A DNA stretch of 64,000 nt from assembly GCA_964402225.1 (NCBI GenBank), contig CAYOBQ010000002.1:27594-91593 (forward strand), in the 5' to 3' direction. Both the position numbers and the translations under genes were made by a program. The notes below the pieces were generated by a model, which was not told the origin of the DNA, ran no database searches, and was given only the letters and a program-made list of their open reading frames with translations. Below, piece by piece: positions 1 through 11,085 of the stretch. The number at the start of each line of letters is the position of its first letter. Position 1 is the first letter of the stretch. The DNA comes from an uncultured Nannocystaceae bacterium. Lineage in GTDB: Bacteria; Myxococcota_A; Bradymonadia; UBA7976; UBA1532.

Positions 1-822
1 GGCCTCCACGTCGGTGGCGGTGATCGGCTCGGGCACGGGCACCGCCAGCGTGACCTTGTCCGCCAGGGCGTTGGTGAGCCAGGGCTGACCCTGGCTCAAC
101 GCCCAGGCGCGCTCCAGCGCGGCCTCGGTGAAGGGCTGTCCGGTGTCCGTGGTGTGCTGCCCGTAGAGGGTGCGCACGTCCGCGTTCGTGAAGTCGCCGA
201 TCCGCAGCGACGCGACCTTGATGTTGAAGGGGCTCGAGCTCCCCGCCTGCGGCGCGCCAACGCCGGAGGCGATCTTGTAGTCGCGGACGTCCCGCAAGCC
301 ACACAGGACGACGGACGCGGGGAAGTCCTTCGGCCTGGACCCGTGGCCAGCCCGGAGCTGCGACAGGACCGAGAGCAGCGAGTCACCGCGCAGCGCATCG
401 ATCTCGTCGAAAAAGAGCGCCAGCGGCTTCCGACAGGCTCTCGCCCACGCCATGAGGTTGCTGCGGAGCCTCGAGCCGACCTCCGCCTCGCGACGCGGCG
501 GCGGACGATCGACGGGGTCGAGTTGGATGGACGCCTCCAACTCGATCTCGGTGAGGATGAGGTTCTCCGCCGCCCCGACACCATCGACTGCGATCTTGGC
601 CCCCTCGCAGGAGAAATACAGTGCCGCGAAGCGCCCGTCGGCGTAGAGAGCCCGGGCGAGGGCCGAAAGCGTCGTGGACTTGCCGGTCTGGCGCGGCGCG
701 TGGACGATGAAGTAGCTCATCCGCCCGATGAGTCGCGGCGCTTCTGGAAGCCGTGACTCCGGGGGCAGCATGTAGTGCCGCTCGGGGTCGCAGCGCCCTG
801 CGGTGTTGAAGAAGCGCTCCAT
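1..822 (-). CDS. AAA-like ATP-binding protein (AAA_35/predicted AAA-ATPase type), N-terminal part; gene continues beyond window start
   Basis: Minus-strand frame ending at ~820-822 translates MERFFNTAGRCDPERHYMLPPESRLPE...MSYFIVHAPRQTGKSTTLSALARALYADGRFAALYFSCEG. Walker A is APRQTGKST. The FNTAG..C.PE.HYM.PP N-terminal motif is typical of the bacterial AAA-like domain family. The ORF runs off the window edge, so it is not in the six-frame track. Confidence 0.6.
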   Translation of the reverse strand, partial: MERFFNTAGRCDPERHYMLPPESRLPEAPRLIGRMSYFIVHAPRQTGKSTTLSALARALYADGRFAALYFSCEGAKIAVDGVGAAENLILTEIELEASIQLDPVDRPPPRREAEVGSRLRSNLMAWARACRKPLALFFDEIDALRGDSLLSVLSQLRAGHGSRPKDFPASVVLCGLRDVRDYKIASGVGAPQAGSSSPFNIKVASLRIGDFTNADVRTLYGQHTTDTGQPFTEAALERAWALSQGQPWLTNALADKVTLAVPVPEPITATDVEA

Positions 823-1199
823 GGACTGACCCTACGGGCGACAACGACCGACCACAAGCCGCGGGGTCAGAGGCGCAGGACGGTGATCTCCCGCCCCGAC
901 GGCGCGGTCCCTGACTCGAAGCGAGAGCGCTCGGCGATGGGTGGAGCGGCGGGGCGACGATCGAAGAGGAGCAGCACGCCGTGGACGAGGACATCGGTAG
1001 GCTTCGAGAGCGCCAAACCCGGCTGGCGGGCGCGTGCAGCGCGCCGCGTCGCGACTCTGCCGCAGTGTCCTCAGTCACTGATTCGGGGCAGCCGGCGTCG
1101 CTCTCGATAACCAACGACGCGCGCGTCTTTGTCGGAGCGCGGGTGGAAAACCGCGGGGAGGGCGCAAAACTGCCGTCGAGGTCACGTCCAGGAGAGGTG

Positions 1200-3605
1200 A
1201 TGCCCGTCCGCGCAGCCGTCATCCTCGCCGGCCTCCTGTGCTGGAGCCCCGCCTCCGCCGCACCACCGCCCGCTTACGACCGGGCCGAAGCGGCGTACAA
1301 GGACGGCGACTATCCAGGTGCCGCGCGCCTCTACGAAGACGCCGTTCTCGAGCTCCCCGAGGCCCAAGGCCCGGAGGTGATGACCAAGCTCGGCCGCTCG
1401 CTGGCCAAGGCGGGACGCCTCGACGAGGCGGAGCGGTGGCTGAAGCGGGCGCAGCGGGAGGGGACGCCAAGGGTCAAGGCCATCGCGCTGCGCAACCTGG
1501 GCCGCGTGCTCCAGAGCCGAAACGACCTCGAGGGCGCGCTGAAGCTCTACACCGAGGCCCGCGACGCCCACGCGAGCCGGGGGGAGAAGCGCGACCTGCT
1601 GATCGCCAACCTCTACATCGCAAACGCCGCCGTCCTCGAGGGGCGCCTCTTCCCCGCGTACCAGGCGTACGAGGGCGCGCTGCAAGCAGCCCGCGAGCTC
1701 GGTGAATCGAAGCAGGAGGCTGCGGCCTTGGCGAACCTCGGCTTCGTGCTCATTGAGGTTGGAGAGCTCAAGGCCGCCGATTGGCAGCTCCAACAAGCCG
1801 CCGAGCTTCACGCCGAGGCCGGACGCGGGGCCGATCTAGCAGGGATTGAGCTCGCGCGAGCCCGGGTTGCTCTACAAGCGGAGCGATACGCGGACGCGAT
1901 GCGCCACGCCGCCCAGGCCAGCCAACTCGGGCCTGATTCGGTCGAGTTTCGTCGGAGCCTTGCCGCGCTCAGAGGCTACGTGGCTCTGGAGACGGGGCAG
2001 ATAGACAAAGGGCTCGAGCTCGTCCGGACTGCGGTGAAGGATGGCGAGCCAGTCTCGACGCCCCGGTTGCTGGACGAGCTCTACCTCCTGGAGGCGAAGT
2101 TGCAACTGAGAGCGGGCAGACCAGCGTCGGCCACCCGCGCACTCGACAAGGCCGCCCAGTGGCCGAGCTCGGCCCGACGCCAGGCGCACGCCGCATACAT
2201 CCGGGCCCGACTGGCTCGAGACCCCGCCGCGAAGATGATCCTGCTCAATCGGTTCTTGGACTTCTCCGAGCGCGCCCGTGGGGGCTTCGCGGCCGACGCG
2301 CTTCGCCTGTTCTTTCGCCCCGCAAACCTGCTCGGGTACGAAGAGTTGGTCGGAGAGGCGGCTCGTCACGGTCACGCCGACCTCGCCTGGCGAACCTCGA
2401 GTCTGGTGAAGGGACGGGCCTTCGCCCACCGCCTACTGACCCAACGGAGGTCTCGCAGATCGCAGGCTGTCGATCCGCTGGTGAGCCTCCGGCTCGGAGA
2501 GAGACTGCGCAACTCGAGAGGTGTCCATGAACGAGGGACCGAGCGCGGCGTCGACCTGCCCGCCGGAATGGCGATTCTCGACTACTTCACCACCCCCGAC
2601 GCCGTCGTCGCGGTCTGGCTCGACGCCAACCACTCGAGGGTCGTCCACCTTCCGATCCGCCGCGTCGGGCTCCTGGATCGAATCATCGCTCTCGAATCGG
2701 GAATCAGGCGCGGCGATGAGAGCTACCGCGACGCCGCGGAATGGCTCGCCAAGCGACTGATCGAGCCGTTCGCGGCCGAGATCAACTCCAACCTCGACGC
2801 GTTGCTCATCGCCCCATACGGTGCTCTGCATCGTGTTCCGTTCGAAGTCCTCCCGTTGCGCGGACGACCCCTCGTGCGCGAGGTCGCCATCTCCTACGCG
2901 GCGAGTGTCCCAGTGGCGATACGAGCGGCTCGGGGCGACCGATGGACCGTCCCGAGCCGGGTCGCGGTCGTGGCGGATGCCCAGTCCAACCTACCGGGGG
3001 CTCGCCGTACGAGTCTCGCCTCGCAGAGACGATGGCCCCACGCGAGAGCAGCGATCGGTGAGGACGCGAGCGAGGCCTCCGTTCGCGCGATGCTGCCAAC
3101 TGACCTGCTGCACTTTGCAGTCCATGGTCGGCGGACAGCGCGGGGCACCTACCTCAATCTCAGTCCCGGGCCAGTCCACGATGGCCGGCTCTACACAGAC
3201 GAATTGGCGGCGCTCGACCTCGAAGGGGCCCTCGTTGTGCTTTCAGCCTGCGCGACGGACGCGGTCGTGCCCGCTCCGGGGGATGAGATGCCAGGCCTGC
3301 TTGGACGCGGCGCGCTCTTGGGCGGGGCTCGAACCTCCATCGGAACGCGCTGGCCCATCGACGACGAGGCGGCCCGAGTCCTCTTCGAAGCGTTCTACGA
3401 ACACCTCGAGGAACGTGGGCCATTGGGCGCCCTCGCGACCGCGCAACGCGCGCTGCTCGACACCGCGGAGGAGGCTCCGGTCGTAGCGTTGCGGAGGTCT
3501 CGTGCGTGCGCGAAGAGGGGACTCACGCCGTGCAACCGTCTTCCCACCGCGCTATCTCATCCAATACACTGGGCCGCCTTCACGCTACGCGGAAACCCAA
3601 ACTAG
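1200..3605 (+). CDS. secreted TPR-repeat protein with C-terminal CHAT (caspase-like) peptidase domain
   Basis: Signal peptide MPVRAAVILAGLLCWSPASAAPP after an AGGAG-like RBS. Multiple TPR-like repeats (AEAAYKDGDYPGAARLYEDAV, LRNLGRVLQSRNDLEGALKLYTEA, etc.). C-terminal CHAT hallmarks: HFAVHGRR (His) and ALVVLSACATD (Cys). The ORF-track start at 981 (GTG) is probably too far upstream. Confidence 0.8.
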   Translation: MPVRAAVILAGLLCWSPASAAPPPAYDRAEAAYKDGDYPGAARLYEDAVLELPEAQGPEVMTKLGRSLAKAGRLDEAERWLKRAQREGTPRVKAIALRNLGRVLQSRNDLEGALKLYTEARDAHASRGEKRDLLIANLYIANAAVLEGRLFPAYQAYEGALQAARELGESKQEAAALANLGFVLIEVGELKAADWQLQQAAELHAEAGRGADLAGIELARARVALQAERYADAMRHAAQASQLGPDSVEFRRSLAALRGYVALETGQIDKGLELVRTAVKDGEPVSTPRLLDELYLLEAKLQLRAGRPASATRALDKAAQWPSSARRQAHAAYIRARLARDPAAKMILLNRFLDFSERARGGFAADALRLFFRPANLLGYEELVGEAARHGHADLAWRTSSLVKGRAFAHRLLTQRRSRRSQAVDPLVSLRLGERLRNSRGVHERGTERGVDLPAGMAILDYFTTPDAVVAVWLDANHSRVVHLPIRRVGLLDRIIALESGIRRGDESYRDAAEWLAKRLIEPFAAEINSNLDALLIAPYGALHRVPFEVLPLRGRPLVREVAISYAASVPVAIRAARGDRWTVPSRVAVVADAQSNLPGARRTSLASQRRWPHARAAIGEDASEASVRAMLPTDLLHFAVHGRRTARGTYLNLSPGPVHDGRLYTDELAALDLEGALVVLSACATDAVVPAPGDEMPGLLGRGALLGGARTSIGTRWPIDDEAARVLFEAFYEHLEERGPLGALATAQRALLDTAEEAPVVALRRSRACAKRGLTPCNRLPTALSHPIHWAAFTLRGNPN

Positions 3606-3617
3606 GGAGTTCTTTCC

Positions 3618-4511
3618 ATGGCCGATCCTACCGACGCGAGGCGCCAACAGCAGCGCTCTGAGACGATAAGAGCCCTCGTAGGGCAGGGAGACCTGGCCCA
3701 ACGTTCGCCTTGCACTCACCCGTCACCGACCACCGCACCGGCCGTCGTCGCGGGCGGTTGTGGCGTCACGGTCACGGTTCACGTCGCTTGCAACTGCGGA
3801 GGACGAGGGAACAGCGCCGGCGTACGACCCGCGGGGCCGCCCGGTCCACAGCCGACCGACCCCGAAGACCCCGAGCTCCCACGGCCGTTCTTCCACGACA
3901 GCTCCGTGCCCCGCCACGCCTTCCCGCTGTGGGCCAGCGGCTCCCTCCCCCACCACTACCAGTCCGTCCACCAGTGGGCGTACGAGGCCGCCGGCGACCA
4001 GATGTCGACCTTCATGTTCGCCGAGAACGATGCCACGGCGTACAAGTACCGGGGCTTTGGGGTAGCGGATGTGGGGGGTGGGAGCAGCCCGGTGTCGGTG
4101 ACGATGGGAGCGGGCTACGACAGCGCCTCGCGGAAGAGCTACGGGGCGGGGGACTGGCCCGTGCAGGGGCTGGCGTTGGCGGCCACCCCGGGGCCGCCGG
4201 ATTCGTCCGGGCTTTGGGTCGTGGACTTCGTGCACAGCGCCGCCCCGGCTGGCGACCACCTCCAGTTGGTGCTCATCCCGCGCAAGGTCGGGAACTACGG
4301 CACCTCCCACACCTTCACGAAGTACAAGTACCAGGGGGCCGTGAGCACCTTGGCGTCCGTGGGCGGCACCACGACGGCGACGGTCTACCTGGCCCAGCCG
4401 GTGGAGTACTACGCCTTCGTCGTCTCGTCGCCGAGCGCGAGCTACGGGGTGGAGAAGGAGAACGCCACCTGTGAGGTGGTGTCCCAGGTGTTCGAGCTCG
4501 CGGCACCCTGA
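3618..4511 (+). CDS. hypothetical protein with Pro/Gly-rich disordered N-terminus and Gly/Ser/Thr/Tyr-rich beta-type C-terminal half; translationally coupled to downstream S8 peptidase
   Basis: 297-aa ORF 13 nt after the CHAT gene stop. Its stop TGA overlaps the ATG of the S8 gene (cccTGATGcct). No signal peptide and no recognisable catalytic motif. Confidence 0.5.
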   Translation: MADPTDARRQQQRSETIRALVGQGDLAQRSPCTHPSPTTAPAVVAGGCGVTVTVHVACNCGGRGNSAGVRPAGPPGPQPTDPEDPELPRPFFHDSSVPRHAFPLWASGSLPHHYQSVHQWAYEAAGDQMSTFMFAENDATAYKYRGFGVADVGGGSSPVSVTMGAGYDSASRKSYGAGDWPVQGLALAATPGPPDSSGLWVVDFVHSAAPAGDHLQLVLIPRKVGNYGTSHTFTKYKYQGAVSTLASVGGTTTATVYLAQPVEYYAFVVSSPSASYGVEKENATCEVVSQVFELAAP

Positions 4512-6775
4512 TGCCTCGCTTTGGTGACATCTACGGTGTGGCGGCTCGGCGGGTCCGGGCGGATGCGCCGACGTTGGCGGAGCGGGTCCGCGCCGAGCTT
4601 CGGGCCGCTCGGGCCGCTGGCCTGTCGGCGGTGGCGGGGGGGGATGACGACGACGTGGCGCGGGCTCGGCTCTTTCCTCGCGGGAAGGGCTTCAAGGAGC
4701 CGATCGTCAAGGACTTCGGCGGCCATGGCGTGATCCCGGGGGCGGACGACGACGACGACGGGGCGCCGCGGCGCGTCCCGCCCCTCGAGTTCGACCCGAT
4801 GCGCTACCCGCCTCGCGTCATCCTGCTCTTCTCCCGGCCGCCCTTTCGCGCCTACCGCGACGGCATGCGCGACTTCCTCGATCCAGCGGTCGCGGCGGCC
4901 TTCGCGCGGCTGGATCGGCTGACGGAGGGCGGGATCGATCTGCGGCGCATATTCACGAGCCTCCCCGACGCCGACCGCCGGCGGGTGCTGGGGGAGGTCT
5001 CCGATCGCGCCTACGCGGTGCACCTTCGCCGGGGCCTCGACCCCTCGGAGGTCCACCGGACGCTCGACCAGATGCTGGTGACGGACCGCCGCGAGGTGGG
5101 CGAGGCGCCGCTGCTGACCTGGGCCTATGTGGAGCCGCTGCCGGCGCCGCCGCCGAGCCTCCCGTCGGATCCCTTCCTCGGCGATCAGACCGCCTTGACC
5201 GACCCCTTCCCCTCTTCGATCGGGCTGTCGAGGGCCTGGGACGCGGGGGTCATGGGCGATGGGGTCCGCTTCGTCGACGTCGAGCAGGGCTGGCTCCTGT
5301 GCCACGACGATCTGCCCAAGGCCGCCGACGGCACGCCGGCGATCACGCCGCTTTGGGGCGTCAACGCCGCCTACGGACACCACGGCGCCGCGGTCCTGGG
5401 GCTCTTGGCGGCGACCCACGAGACGCGGCAGGGGGCGGGCGTCGCGCCGCGGGCCGAGGGGCGCGTGGCGTCGGTGTGGTCGGTGGCCGAGGGGGCCATC
5501 TTCGACCAGGGTCAGGGCTGGGGCGTCCCGGCCTTTGGTGAGCCCGATGACCTGCTGCCGTGGATCGGCTCAACGCTGATCCACAGCCCCGCCGACGCCA
5601 TCCTCGCGGCCCTCCACTGGCTCCGGGCCGGCGACGTCCTGGTGATCGAGCACCAGGTAGGGGACTTCGTCAGCTACCGCGGGCGCGAGGTCTTCACCTT
5701 GCTGCCGGCGAGCGCCGATCCGTTGACGCGGCTGATGCTGCGGGCGGCCTATGCCCTGAATGTGGTGGTCATCGAGGCCGCCGGGAACGGTGGCTACGAC
5801 CTCGGCGGCTACAGGGACCCCAACGGGCACGCGGTCTTCAGCGATCCGCGCTACCACACGGGCTCGATCATGGTAGGGGCCGGCAAGGACGTCGGCGACC
5901 ACGAGCGCTACGACTCGGCCACGGCGGGGAGCAACTACGGGCACCGGGTCGACAACTACGCCTGGGGACTTCACGTCGCGACCCTGGGCGATCCGACGGC
6001 GCCGTACAGCCTCGACGGGTGGAACACCGACTTCCGCGCGACGAGCGCCGCCACGGCCCTCGTCGCCTGCGCGGCGGTCGCCCTCCAAGGCGCGCGCAAG
6101 CAAGCGGGGAAGGATCCCTACACCCCCGACAAGATGCGAGACGCGCTGCGTCACGGGGTGCCCTCCGGGGACGCCGCCTTGTACCCGATCGGCGTGATGC
6201 CGGACCTGGATGTGGCCCTCGCGGCGGCCCTCTCGGCGGGGGCCGCGGGCGCCCCGACGCCCAACCTGTGGATGCGCGACCACGTCACCGACACCGGCGT
6301 GCCCTTCGACGTCCTCCCGAACGCCGCGCGACGCAGCCCGGATCTGCACATCATCGAGATCGCGACGGGGGCCCGCGTCGCCGACGGCGATCCCGTGGAG
6401 CGTAGCGCCAACCCCGCCTACAGCGTCGTGGCCCACGTCCGAAACAGGGGCGCCACGGCCCACGACGTCCCCCTGGACCTCTACCTCGTGGCCCAGATCC
6501 CCGACGCGTTCACGGGCCCGAAGACCAGCGACGCACTCCACCTCACGACCGTGAACCTCGGACAGGTCGACCAGGGGGGGGCGACCCCCACGCCCGCACA
6601 GCCCTTCCGCACGGACCTCGGCGCCAACTTCTCGGTCCTGTGGGTGGTCGCGGTGGTCCGCGGGCCCGACGATCAGGCCGGTCAGCCCCCCGCCGCGGGG
6701 ACCCCCGAGCTGGCGTTTCTCAACTGGGTCACGGCCCACGAAAACGTCGCGGTTCAGGACATCCTGCTGGCCTGA
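4511..6775 (+). CDS. S8 family subtilisin-like serine peptidase (no signal peptide; long N- and C-terminal extensions)
   Basis: Catalytic triad context: FVDVEQGW (Asp), HHGAAVLGLLAA (His), GWNTDFRATSAATALVACAAVAL (GTSxA Ser), plus NVVVIEAAGNGG oxyanion region. 754 aa. Confidence 0.8.
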   Translation: MPRFGDIYGVAARRVRADAPTLAERVRAELRAARAAGLSAVAGGDDDDVARARLFPRGKGFKEPIVKDFGGHGVIPGADDDDDGAPRRVPPLEFDPMRYPPRVILLFSRPPFRAYRDGMRDFLDPAVAAAFARLDRLTEGGIDLRRIFTSLPDADRRRVLGEVSDRAYAVHLRRGLDPSEVHRTLDQMLVTDRREVGEAPLLTWAYVEPLPAPPPSLPSDPFLGDQTALTDPFPSSIGLSRAWDAGVMGDGVRFVDVEQGWLLCHDDLPKAADGTPAITPLWGVNAAYGHHGAAVLGLLAATHETRQGAGVAPRAEGRVASVWSVAEGAIFDQGQGWGVPAFGEPDDLLPWIGSTLIHSPADAILAALHWLRAGDVLVIEHQVGDFVSYRGREVFTLLPASADPLTRLMLRAAYALNVVVIEAAGNGGYDLGGYRDPNGHAVFSDPRYHTGSIMVGAGKDVGDHERYDSATAGSNYGHRVDNYAWGLHVATLGDPTAPYSLDGWNTDFRATSAATALVACAAVALQGARKQAGKDPYTPDKMRDALRHGVPSGDAALYPIGVMPDLDVALAAALSAGAAGAPTPNLWMRDHVTDTGVPFDVLPNAARRSPDLHIIEIATGARVADGDPVERSANPAYSVVAHVRNRGATAHDVPLDLYLVAQIPDAFTGPKTSDALHLTTVNLGQVDQGGATPTPAQPFRTDLGANFSVLWVVAVVRGPDDQAGQPPAAGTPELAFLNWVTAHENVAVQDILLA

Positions 6776-7278
6776 CTACAGGACATCTCCCTCGATGCGC
6801 CGGGTCAGGACCGTGTCGATCCGGTCCAGGAAGGCGAAGGTGAACGGCACCGCGAGGGTGACGACGACGACGCGGGGGACGATGAGCGACCCGACCCGGG
6901 CCGCGAGGAGGGTGTCGCCCATGAAGACGCGGGCGACGACCACCAGCAAGAAGAGGCTGACGAAGCCGCCGACGAGGCCGAGCAGGCCGTAGCCGACGAC
7001 GCCCTGGAAGCGGACCTGATTACCGAGGGCCGCGGCGGCGTAGAAGAGCAGGACGGCGTGGAGCATGTGCAGGCCGAGGGGGGAGCCGGCGAAGCCGTCG
7101 GCGATGGCGCCCAGGGCCGCGGCGAGGACCGCGCCGTGGATCCAGGACCGCCGACCGCCGATCCAGAGGACCACGGCGCTGAGGAGGTCCGGGGACCAGG
7201 CGTCGAGGGCGAAGGCCTCGCGGACGAAGAGCTCGCCCATCAACGCGCCGATGCCGACCAGAACCGGTAGGGCGGTGT

Positions 7279-7282
<4 letters not shown>
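6776..7282 (-). CDS. mreD: rod shape-determining protein MreD
   Basis: 168-aa polytopic membrane protein immediately downstream of mreC, overlapping it by 4 nt. Typical mreBCD order. Confidence 0.7.

Positions 7283-11085
<3,803 letters not shown>

Follow-up and report, generated by a model that had tools for sequence, protein, structure and literature searches.

Why should an apparently exported caspase-like protease, a protein of no described family and a subtilase be encoded side by side in one tightly packed group of genes? The question is raised by three plus-strand genes near the start of a 64-kb stretch of contig CAYOBQ010000002.1 (hereafter the window; G+C about 70%) from an uncultured Nannocystaceae bacterium. 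They code, in this order, for a TPR-CHAT protease (nucleotides (nt) 1200–3605; 801 amino acids (aa)), a 297-aa protein that we call the partner (3618–4511) and an S8 subtilase (4511–6775; 754 aa). The start codon of the first is an ATG preceded by the Shine-Dalgarno sequence GGAGAGG, and the partner gene is preceded by TAGGGAG. A first-pass annotation had described the three genes as closely packed with a TGATG overlap at the second junction. Both points hold, the ATG of the S8 gene overlapping the TGA of the partner gene by 1 nt, but the first spacing (3606–3617) is 12 nt rather than the 13 reported. The explanation that we favour, as possible rather than probable, is that this cassette acts as an envelope-associated proteolytic cascade or signalling/processing unit in which the subtilase would be controlled by the CHAT protease through docking on the partner or cleavage of it.

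Conservation of the gene order

We compared the cassette with related loci (L-numbers; L007 is the source contig around the window) and homologous proteins (P-numbers). The order CHAT, partner, S8 was found with tight spacing in the window and L007, and again in L001–L006, L012, L013 (an uncultured Myxococcales metagenome-assembled genome, MAG), L092/L093, L095–L097 and L101, all with differing neighbourhoods. The short contigs L099, L100, L102 and L104, as well as one JGI contig, likewise have the C-terminus of a CHAT protein directly upstream of the partner gene. CHAT was directly upstream of the partner in 12 of the 13 lineages examined, and S8 directly downstream of it in most members carrying the long form of the partner. 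At the P0002 locus, which reads lipoprotein, TPR-CHAT, partner, S8 and an exported 443-aa protein in a neighbourhood different from that of the window, the gap between CHAT and partner is 11 nt and the partner and S8 genes share the same 1-nt overlap as in the window.

Since the same order and the same tight spacing recur in at least eight divergent lineages with unrelated flanks, the arrangement is more than chance, and the three genes appear to form one conserved functional cluster. Synteny in other genomes, on which the first-pass annotation had staked its grouping, was thus borne out. The three-gene cassette was not found in the libraries or literature searched. Themes met before in other systems come together in it: the TPR-CHAT protease encoded beside its substrate, the TPR-CHAT protein of the periplasm (DdvA) and the subtilase without signal peptide (PopC).

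The partner protein

A lack of conservation of the 297-aa open reading frame would have counted against the first-pass annotation. Its single non-self match in a word-indexed set of 5.8 billion sequences was P0002, 51% identical over the full length, and a query of this set with the family alignment returned 3 proteins only. A profile of the partner gathered 21 members among 1.84 billion cluster representatives, 9 of them below 1e-10. The full-length orthologue and the 21 profile matches indicate that the reading frame is real. Identity across cassette loci drops to 22–30%. The protein had no match in Pfam, NCBIfam or PADLOC, no meaningful sequence match in the PDB and no signal peptide; to judge from these searches, it founds a rare and undescribed family.

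The N-terminal module of the partner (aa 1–90, nt 3618–3887) comprises a helix (aa 7–22) and then a Cys-rich strand motif, GGCGVTVTVHVACNCGG (Cys32, Cys48, Cys58 and Cys60), modelled with low confidence as a beta-hairpin by AlphaFold2 (AF2). The low-confidence segment ends in the acidic-proline motif DPEDPELPRP (aa 81–90, nt 3858–3887), located by the family alignment. Behind it the AF2 model predicts two Fn3/Ig-like beta-sandwich domains of seven strands each (aa about 91–180 and about 183–297; nt 3888–4508). This model, computed with a 19-sequence alignment, reached a predicted local distance difference test score (pLDDT) of 76 overall and 85–94 over aa 90–160, while a 2-sequence alignment gave a pLDDT of 35. 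The best-conserved linear element of the family is PPDP(E/D)(L/M)PxP. Five short members of 200–214 aa start exactly at this element.

Searches with the predicted fold returned generic beta-sandwiches only, and no gasdermin, pore-former, toxin or known subtilisin-inhibitor fold was among the matches to the model. A relationship of the sandwiches to DUF4384, a domain met again below, was rejected (hhalign probability 1.8%). We also considered amyloid-type signalling through the alternating strand motif and dropped it, as no matching motif was seen on inspection of the CHAT or S8 protein of the same locus.

The TPR-CHAT protease

As the first-pass annotation had proposed, the first gene codes for a TPR array with a signal peptide that ends in a CHAT protease with its His and Cys. 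The N-terminus, MPVRAAVILAGLLCWSPASA/APPP, carries a signal peptide of typical Sec type (aa 1–20, nt 1200–1259), followed by the TPR array (about aa 24–320; several Pfam TPR families) and the CHAT domain (aa 511–799, nt 2730–3596; Pfam PF12770, E value 1.6e-42, 146.4 bits against a cutoff of 24). The catalytic dyad is formed by His642 (nt 3123–3125, motif AVHG) and Cys684 (nt 3249–3251, motif LSAC), both invariant in an alignment of 9 related CHATs. The signal peptide leads straight into the TPRs, with neither a fused zinc anti-sigma domain nor a transmembrane helix in the window protein. A signal peptide or a lipobox was present on every full-length CHAT protein adjoining a partner gene or an S8 gene of the same type, and the window protein looks like one exported via its Sec signal peptide. 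When the CHAT profile was searched against the PDB, the sole CHAT-domain chain among the 60 matches listed was DdvA (8rot_B/8rw5, E value 3e-13), and the match to 8rot_B spans the dyad region.

Near their C-terminus the CHATs of the cassette type have an insert in common that contains two conserved cysteines (ALR..C..RGL.P.C; window 3480–3560, aa about 760–785). A disulfide between these cysteines is possible and would be in keeping with a location in the periplasm. The acidobacterial CHAT does not carry the insert.

The S8 subtilase and its neighbours

The third gene was likewise found to be as first described, an S8 subtilase without signal peptide and with long extensions. The catalytic domain (aa about 246–566, nt 5246–6208) matches Pfam Peptidase_S8 (PF00082) with 35.4 bits against a cutoff of 21.8. 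It is preceded by an N-terminal extension with acidic runs (aa 1 to about 95) and, where a propeptide would be expected, an alpha/beta region (aa about 95–245), and followed by a beta-rich C-terminal domain (aa about 590–754, nt 6278–6772); Pfam matched neither of the last two. Asp256 (nt 5276–5278), His291 (nt 5381–5383), Asn426 and Ser512 (nt 6044–6046) are invariant in the family alignment and align to the catalytic motifs of subtilisin, Asp256 sitting in the unusual motif D-[IV]-E-Q-G-W. Thus the catalytic residues of both proteases, whose absence on careful alignment would have undone the first description, are present and invariant. No hydrophobic N-terminal segment and no signal peptide was detected in the S8 protein or its orthologues. 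The S8 sequence alone found nothing in the PDB by phmmer. For the propeptide-position region, the distant relative P0006 gave only a weak Fervidolysin_NPro-like match (E value 0.16).

We then surveyed the S8 subfamily in GTDB species representatives, which gave 457 confirmed loci, and examined the neighbourhoods of 82 of them. The most widely shared neighbour was a TPR-CHAT gene, present within 4.5 kb in 12 of the 82 loci (Myxococcota, Acidobacteriota and Bacteroidota). The other recurrent neighbours were discarded, since they reflect synteny of housekeeping genes at genus level (Agromyces and Nitrosospira). Another association with a repeat sensor was observed in L032, L055, L065 and L072 (MAGs of Verrucomicrobiota, Planctomycetaceae and Bryobacteraceae and one unclassified MAG), where the S8 gene lies just downstream of a gene for a Ser/Thr-kinase/transmembrane/TPR protein of about 900 aa.

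Sigma factor genes and the N-terminal module in related loci

Several relatives of the cassette adjoin genes of the sigma factor type. Five acidobacterial (Thermoanaerobaculia) loci (L010, L075, L079, L086 and L089) have the order extracytoplasmic function (ECF) sigma factor, transmembrane anti-sigma factor, lipoprotein TPR-CHAT and S8, with no partner gene. In L083 the contig begins inside the CHAT gene, and CHAT and S8 alone are visible. The order in L098 is ECF-sigma-like protein, 350-aa DUF4384 protein, CHAT, short partner and BrkB-like membrane protein. Similarly, a gene for a small transmembrane DUF4384-like protein stands directly upstream of CHAT in L012, L013 and L092.

The six acidobacterial loci without partner gene (L083 included) code for S8 proteins with an N-terminal extension of 109–132 aa, made up of a HITINE-like strand, acidic-proline repeats and a Cys-rich motif ahead of the protease. 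The acidic-proline unit, YVMPDPDDPE(H)P or a variant of it (YVMPDPDDPEHP, YVVPDPEDPDYP or CDPEERPSILPPDDS), occurs as near-identical tandem copies, three of them in each of L079, L083, L086 and L089; L010 has two, and L075 shows no clear copy. The Cys-rich motif that follows is CCC in five of the six and CGCG in L075. By eye, these are the three elements of the partner N-terminus in another order, which hints that the N-terminal module may be portable between partner and S8. The short partner of L098, seen in full context, has no Cys-rich part and no adjoining S8, and therefore the sandwiches with the PPDP motif would go with CHAT and the Cys-rich module with S8.

A proposed envelope proteolytic unit

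How could the three proteins work together? In the scheme that we propose, the TPR-CHAT protein would be exported by its Sec signal peptide, its TPR arm providing a sensing or docking surface as in DdvA. CHAT would dock on the partner and probably cut it at the acidic-proline linker PPDP(E/D)(L/M)PxP, which would serve as its recognition site; it may also cut a similar acidic stretch in the N-terminal extension of S8. The TGATG overlap couples translation of the subtilase, which has no signal peptide of its own, to that of the partner, and both would have to reach the periplasm. Cleavage would then free or activate the partner-subtilase pair, giving a proteolytic cascade of two tiers. In relatives the same CHAT is linked with an ECF sigma factor and with an anti-sigma-like DUF4384 protein, and for this reason we prefer to view the unit as a device for signalling or processing at the envelope.

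A number of observations weigh against this scheme. The partner and S8 have no signal peptide, and therefore CHAT and its proposed substrates may occupy different compartments. This question of compartment is the main weakness. PopC, a Myxococcus xanthus subtilase without signal peptide, reaches the periplasm (PMC6434023), which is a precedent and not evidence. Intracellular serine proteases (subtilisins; E value 2e-17) head the PDB matches of the S8 profile, and an I9-type propeptide was not matched by Pfam in aa 95–245 even at an E value of 10. No homologue of the sigma, anti-sigma or DUF4384 genes of the relatives was found in the window, so that the link to signalling is drawn from relatives only. 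The likeness between the partner N-terminus and the acidobacterial S8 extensions concerns low-complexity sequence and was judged by eye without statistics; the N-terminal module of the partner family is enriched in Cys, at positions that vary and are not strictly conserved. Finally, three loci break the pattern: L103 has a short partner without CHAT, L098 has CHAT and partner without S8, and in L009 the S8 protein (P0004) is intact though CHAT and most of the partner gene are lost.

The contents of these three loci were as follows. In L103 (4067–8561; PVBE012870767.1), the only find in one metagenome scan, another scan being empty, a 210-aa partner starting MPYPHVPPDPDQP comes after exported VIT-vWA (797 aa) and beta-propeller (476 aa) proteins. 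In L098 (8685–10007), a short-form lineage, a BrkB/YihY-family membrane protein fills the slot that S8 takes elsewhere. In L009 (8422–10001; GCA_002998485.1, PVBE012344214.1) an MNT (Polbeta)/HepT toxin-antitoxin pair replaces CHAT and about the first 245 partner codons; the last 50 or so partner codons remain, in a locus otherwise syntenic with L001. In L001 itself two further genes of the operon carry export signals.

Export by the twin-arginine (Tat) route or by hitch-hiking was considered and rejected: the twin arginine is not conserved, and the partner and most of the CHAT signal peptides lack a suitable hydrophobic h-region.

Two other readings had been offered by the first-pass annotation. 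In the one modelled on PopC (UniProt Q1DFT5) and PopD (MXAN_0207), the partner would be a cytoplasmic inhibitor or secretion gate that holds the co-translated S8 until regulated degradation frees it for export, with CHAT as an accessory. Compared by gene layout and description, some traits agree: a subtilase without signal peptide stands beside a small partner gene, coupled to it through TGATG, in a genome that looks myxobacterial and within the Myxococcota, where PopC becomes periplasmic or secreted though it has no signal peptide (PMC6434023) and is bound and held back by PopD (PMC4320627). What stands from this reading is the subtilase without signal peptide. The gene order is reversed, the partner being upstream of S8 whereas popD is downstream of popC in the popCD operon (PMC4320627); the third gene, CHAT, is integral; and the invariant neighbour of the partner is CHAT and not S8, as L098 illustrates. 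Moreover, L009 and the six acidobacterial CHAT-S8 loci have an intact S8 and no partner, and the predicted fold of the partner, a tandem beta-sandwich of generic type, did not match any known subtilisin inhibitor. We therefore regard a PopD-like role as unlikely. The other reading is a cytoplasmic conflict or cell-death module: CHAT, S8 or both, as proteases with a repeat sensor, would cut the middle protein and so set free an effector that is toxic or forms pores. It recalls bacterial and fungal gasdermins, whose genes adjoin those of CHAT, C14 or subtilase proteases with fused TPRs or repeats of other kinds (bioRxiv 10.1101/2021.06.07.447441), the protein beside the protease being of about 250–300 aa. 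The MNT/HepT pair that replaces part of the cassette in L009, as in variable islands, and the rearrangement scar that adjoins the cassette (see below) would also fit. However, the modelled fold of the middle protein is a generic tandem Ig/Fn3-like sandwich and not a gasdermin, pore-former or toxin, CHAT is exported, and the cassette had no defence-system match in PADLOC except for a weak generic TPR match, which together make a death module very improbable. Since the partner follows CHAT and not S8 and shows neither a gasdermin nor an inhibitor fold, neither earlier reading is well supported. A protease with an adjacent substrate remains plausible in spirit, with the evidence pointing to envelope signalling or processing over a cytoplasmic death module.

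One further possibility is a securin-like role, in which the disordered N-terminus of the partner, with its PPDPELP, would be a pseudosubstrate inhibitor or chaperone that keeps TPR-CHAT inactive until S8 degrades the partner and releases CHAT activity. CHAT is a separase-type protease, and the paper on DdvA (PMC11506125) names securin as the protein that inhibits separase; CHAT and partner are strictly adjacent, and the conserved linear motif lies in a segment that the model places with low confidence, and which is probably disordered, ahead of the folded domains. Nevertheless, this reading meets the same mismatch of compartments, CHAT being exported through Sec as an unfolded chain and the partner having no signal peptide, and it leaves the same N-terminal elements on S8 in partner-less loci unexplained; we give it little credence, about as much as the PopD-like role. 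That the three genes are unrelated and were joined by chance or local insertion could be argued from the block interrupting the mreBCD/pbp2-rodA cluster and adjoining the scar. With overlapping stop and start codons, and order and tight spacing kept between unrelated flanks in the lineages counted above, chance adjacency is effectively refuted by synteny and its probability is close to nil.

Returning to the envelope unit, a bolder version of it can be stated, which we hold to be doubtful: an undescribed periplasmic cascade from a caspase-like protease to a subtilase, which would recognise its substrates by a portable module at their N-terminus. This module, a Cys-rich strand with acidic-proline repeats of the PDP type, would be carried on either a dedicated beta-sandwich protein or the subtilase. 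It might also serve for export or tethering where no signal peptide is present, and some lineages would use the cascade to feed an ECF sigma/DUF4384 anti-sigma switch. If true, such a periplasmic cascade with a portable module would be an extracytoplasmic counterpart of Craspase-Csx30-RpoE signalling.

To our knowledge, exported TPR-CHAT proteases are almost unstudied and DdvA is the sole characterised example. The partner, conserved beside an exported CHAT and bearing a sharp linear motif, offers a definite candidate for a substrate or regulator, and with it a direct test of how periplasmic CHAT proteases are activated and what they are specific for. With the cassette come, too, a new protein family, a hint of a recognition module portable between two carrier proteins and a second case of a myxobacterial-type subtilase without signal peptide; the latter bears on the question, raised by the work on PopC, of how such a protein crosses the inner membrane.

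Comparison with known systems

The closest characterised protein is DdvA of M. xanthus, an anti-sigma factor with a periplasmic TPR-CHAT part, which is proposed to sense a periplasmic protein signal, to cleave itself and to release the ECF sigma factor DdvS (PMC11506125). Both are periplasmic TPR-CHAT proteins with a His-Cys dyad from the same phylum-level background, if the cassette protein is exported as predicted, and relatives of the cassette adjoin genes for ECF sigma and anti-sigma-like proteins. In contrast to DdvA, the CHAT protein of the cassette is free and exported, with no fused anti-sigma domain or transmembrane helix and no ECF sigma gene in the window, whereas DdvA has no beta-sandwich partner and no subtilase. 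DdvA moreover controls an island with CRISPR and cyclic oligonucleotide-based antiphage signalling system (CBASS) genes; none of this kind was recognised in the stretch that we examined.

The second comparison is with Craspase (type III-E), in which the TPR-CHAT protein Csx29 cleaves Csx30, the protein that holds the ECF sigma factor RpoE. In both cases a TPR-CHAT gene stands beside the gene of a dedicated protein with a flexible linker, whose role as substrate is proposed for the cassette, and an ECF sigma link exists. DUF4384 is a C-terminal domain in some Csx30 substrates of Craspase (bioRxiv 10.1101/2022.08.17.504292), and the proteins encoded directly upstream of CHAT in L012, L013, L092 and L098 contain it as well. 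However, Craspase is cytoplasmic and RNA-guided (Cas7-11), while the CHAT of the cassette is exported and without any CRISPR component; Csx29 was not among the 60 PDB matches listed for the CHAT profile, and the partner does not resemble DUF4384.

Genomic setting and the divergent ATPase

The ATPase gene and the three-gene cassette (about 7.6 kb) lie between mreB-mreC-mreD and pbp2-rodA, which are all on the minus strand (L007 1–15448; window 1–9353). The stop codon of S8 ends at 6775 and the convergent mreD reading frame at 6776, with zero intergenic bases and nothing resembling a terminator in between. A search of window 1–9500 against Rfam gave no RNA family. In many bacteria mreBCD and pbp2-rodA form one contiguous cell-shape cluster, and hence the block of ATPase and cassette looks like an insertion into that cluster.

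The first-pass annotation had placed an ATPase gene about 375 bp upstream, divergent from CHAT, and had grouped it with the cluster as an AAA_35-type protein. The distance was close to the mark: 377 bp separate the ATG of CHAT from that of the ATPase, which stands at 822 (minus strand). The gene runs off the start of the window, which holds the first 274 codons (1..822, minus strand) of a 522-aa protein with, in translation, an AAA_16-like P-loop. The assignment to AAA_35 did not hold, the only Pfam matches of the ATP-binding part being to AAA_16 and AAA_22, weak and below cutoff. The C-terminal half gave a faint match to PDDEXK_9 (E value 0.12) and is possibly of the PD-(D/E)XK type. In the neighbourhood comparison no homologue of the ATPase was found at any other cassette locus; it is therefore a neighbour outside the conserved module, and was rejected as a component of it.

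The intergenic region between ATPase and CHAT contains the remnant of a second ATPase copy, the last 37 codons and stop (870..980, minus strand; in frame, GVLLLFDRRPAAPPIAERSRFESGTAPSGREITVLRL*). It belongs to a direct repeat of 123 nt, 89% identical between window 867–989 (minus strand) and L007 5349–5471, outside the window, the latter copy being the true 3′ end of the ATPase gene. By tblastn the remnant is 86% identical to the ATPase (E value 1.6e-13), and the similarity stops at about 980 in the window. The fragment is a rearrangement scar beside the cassette.

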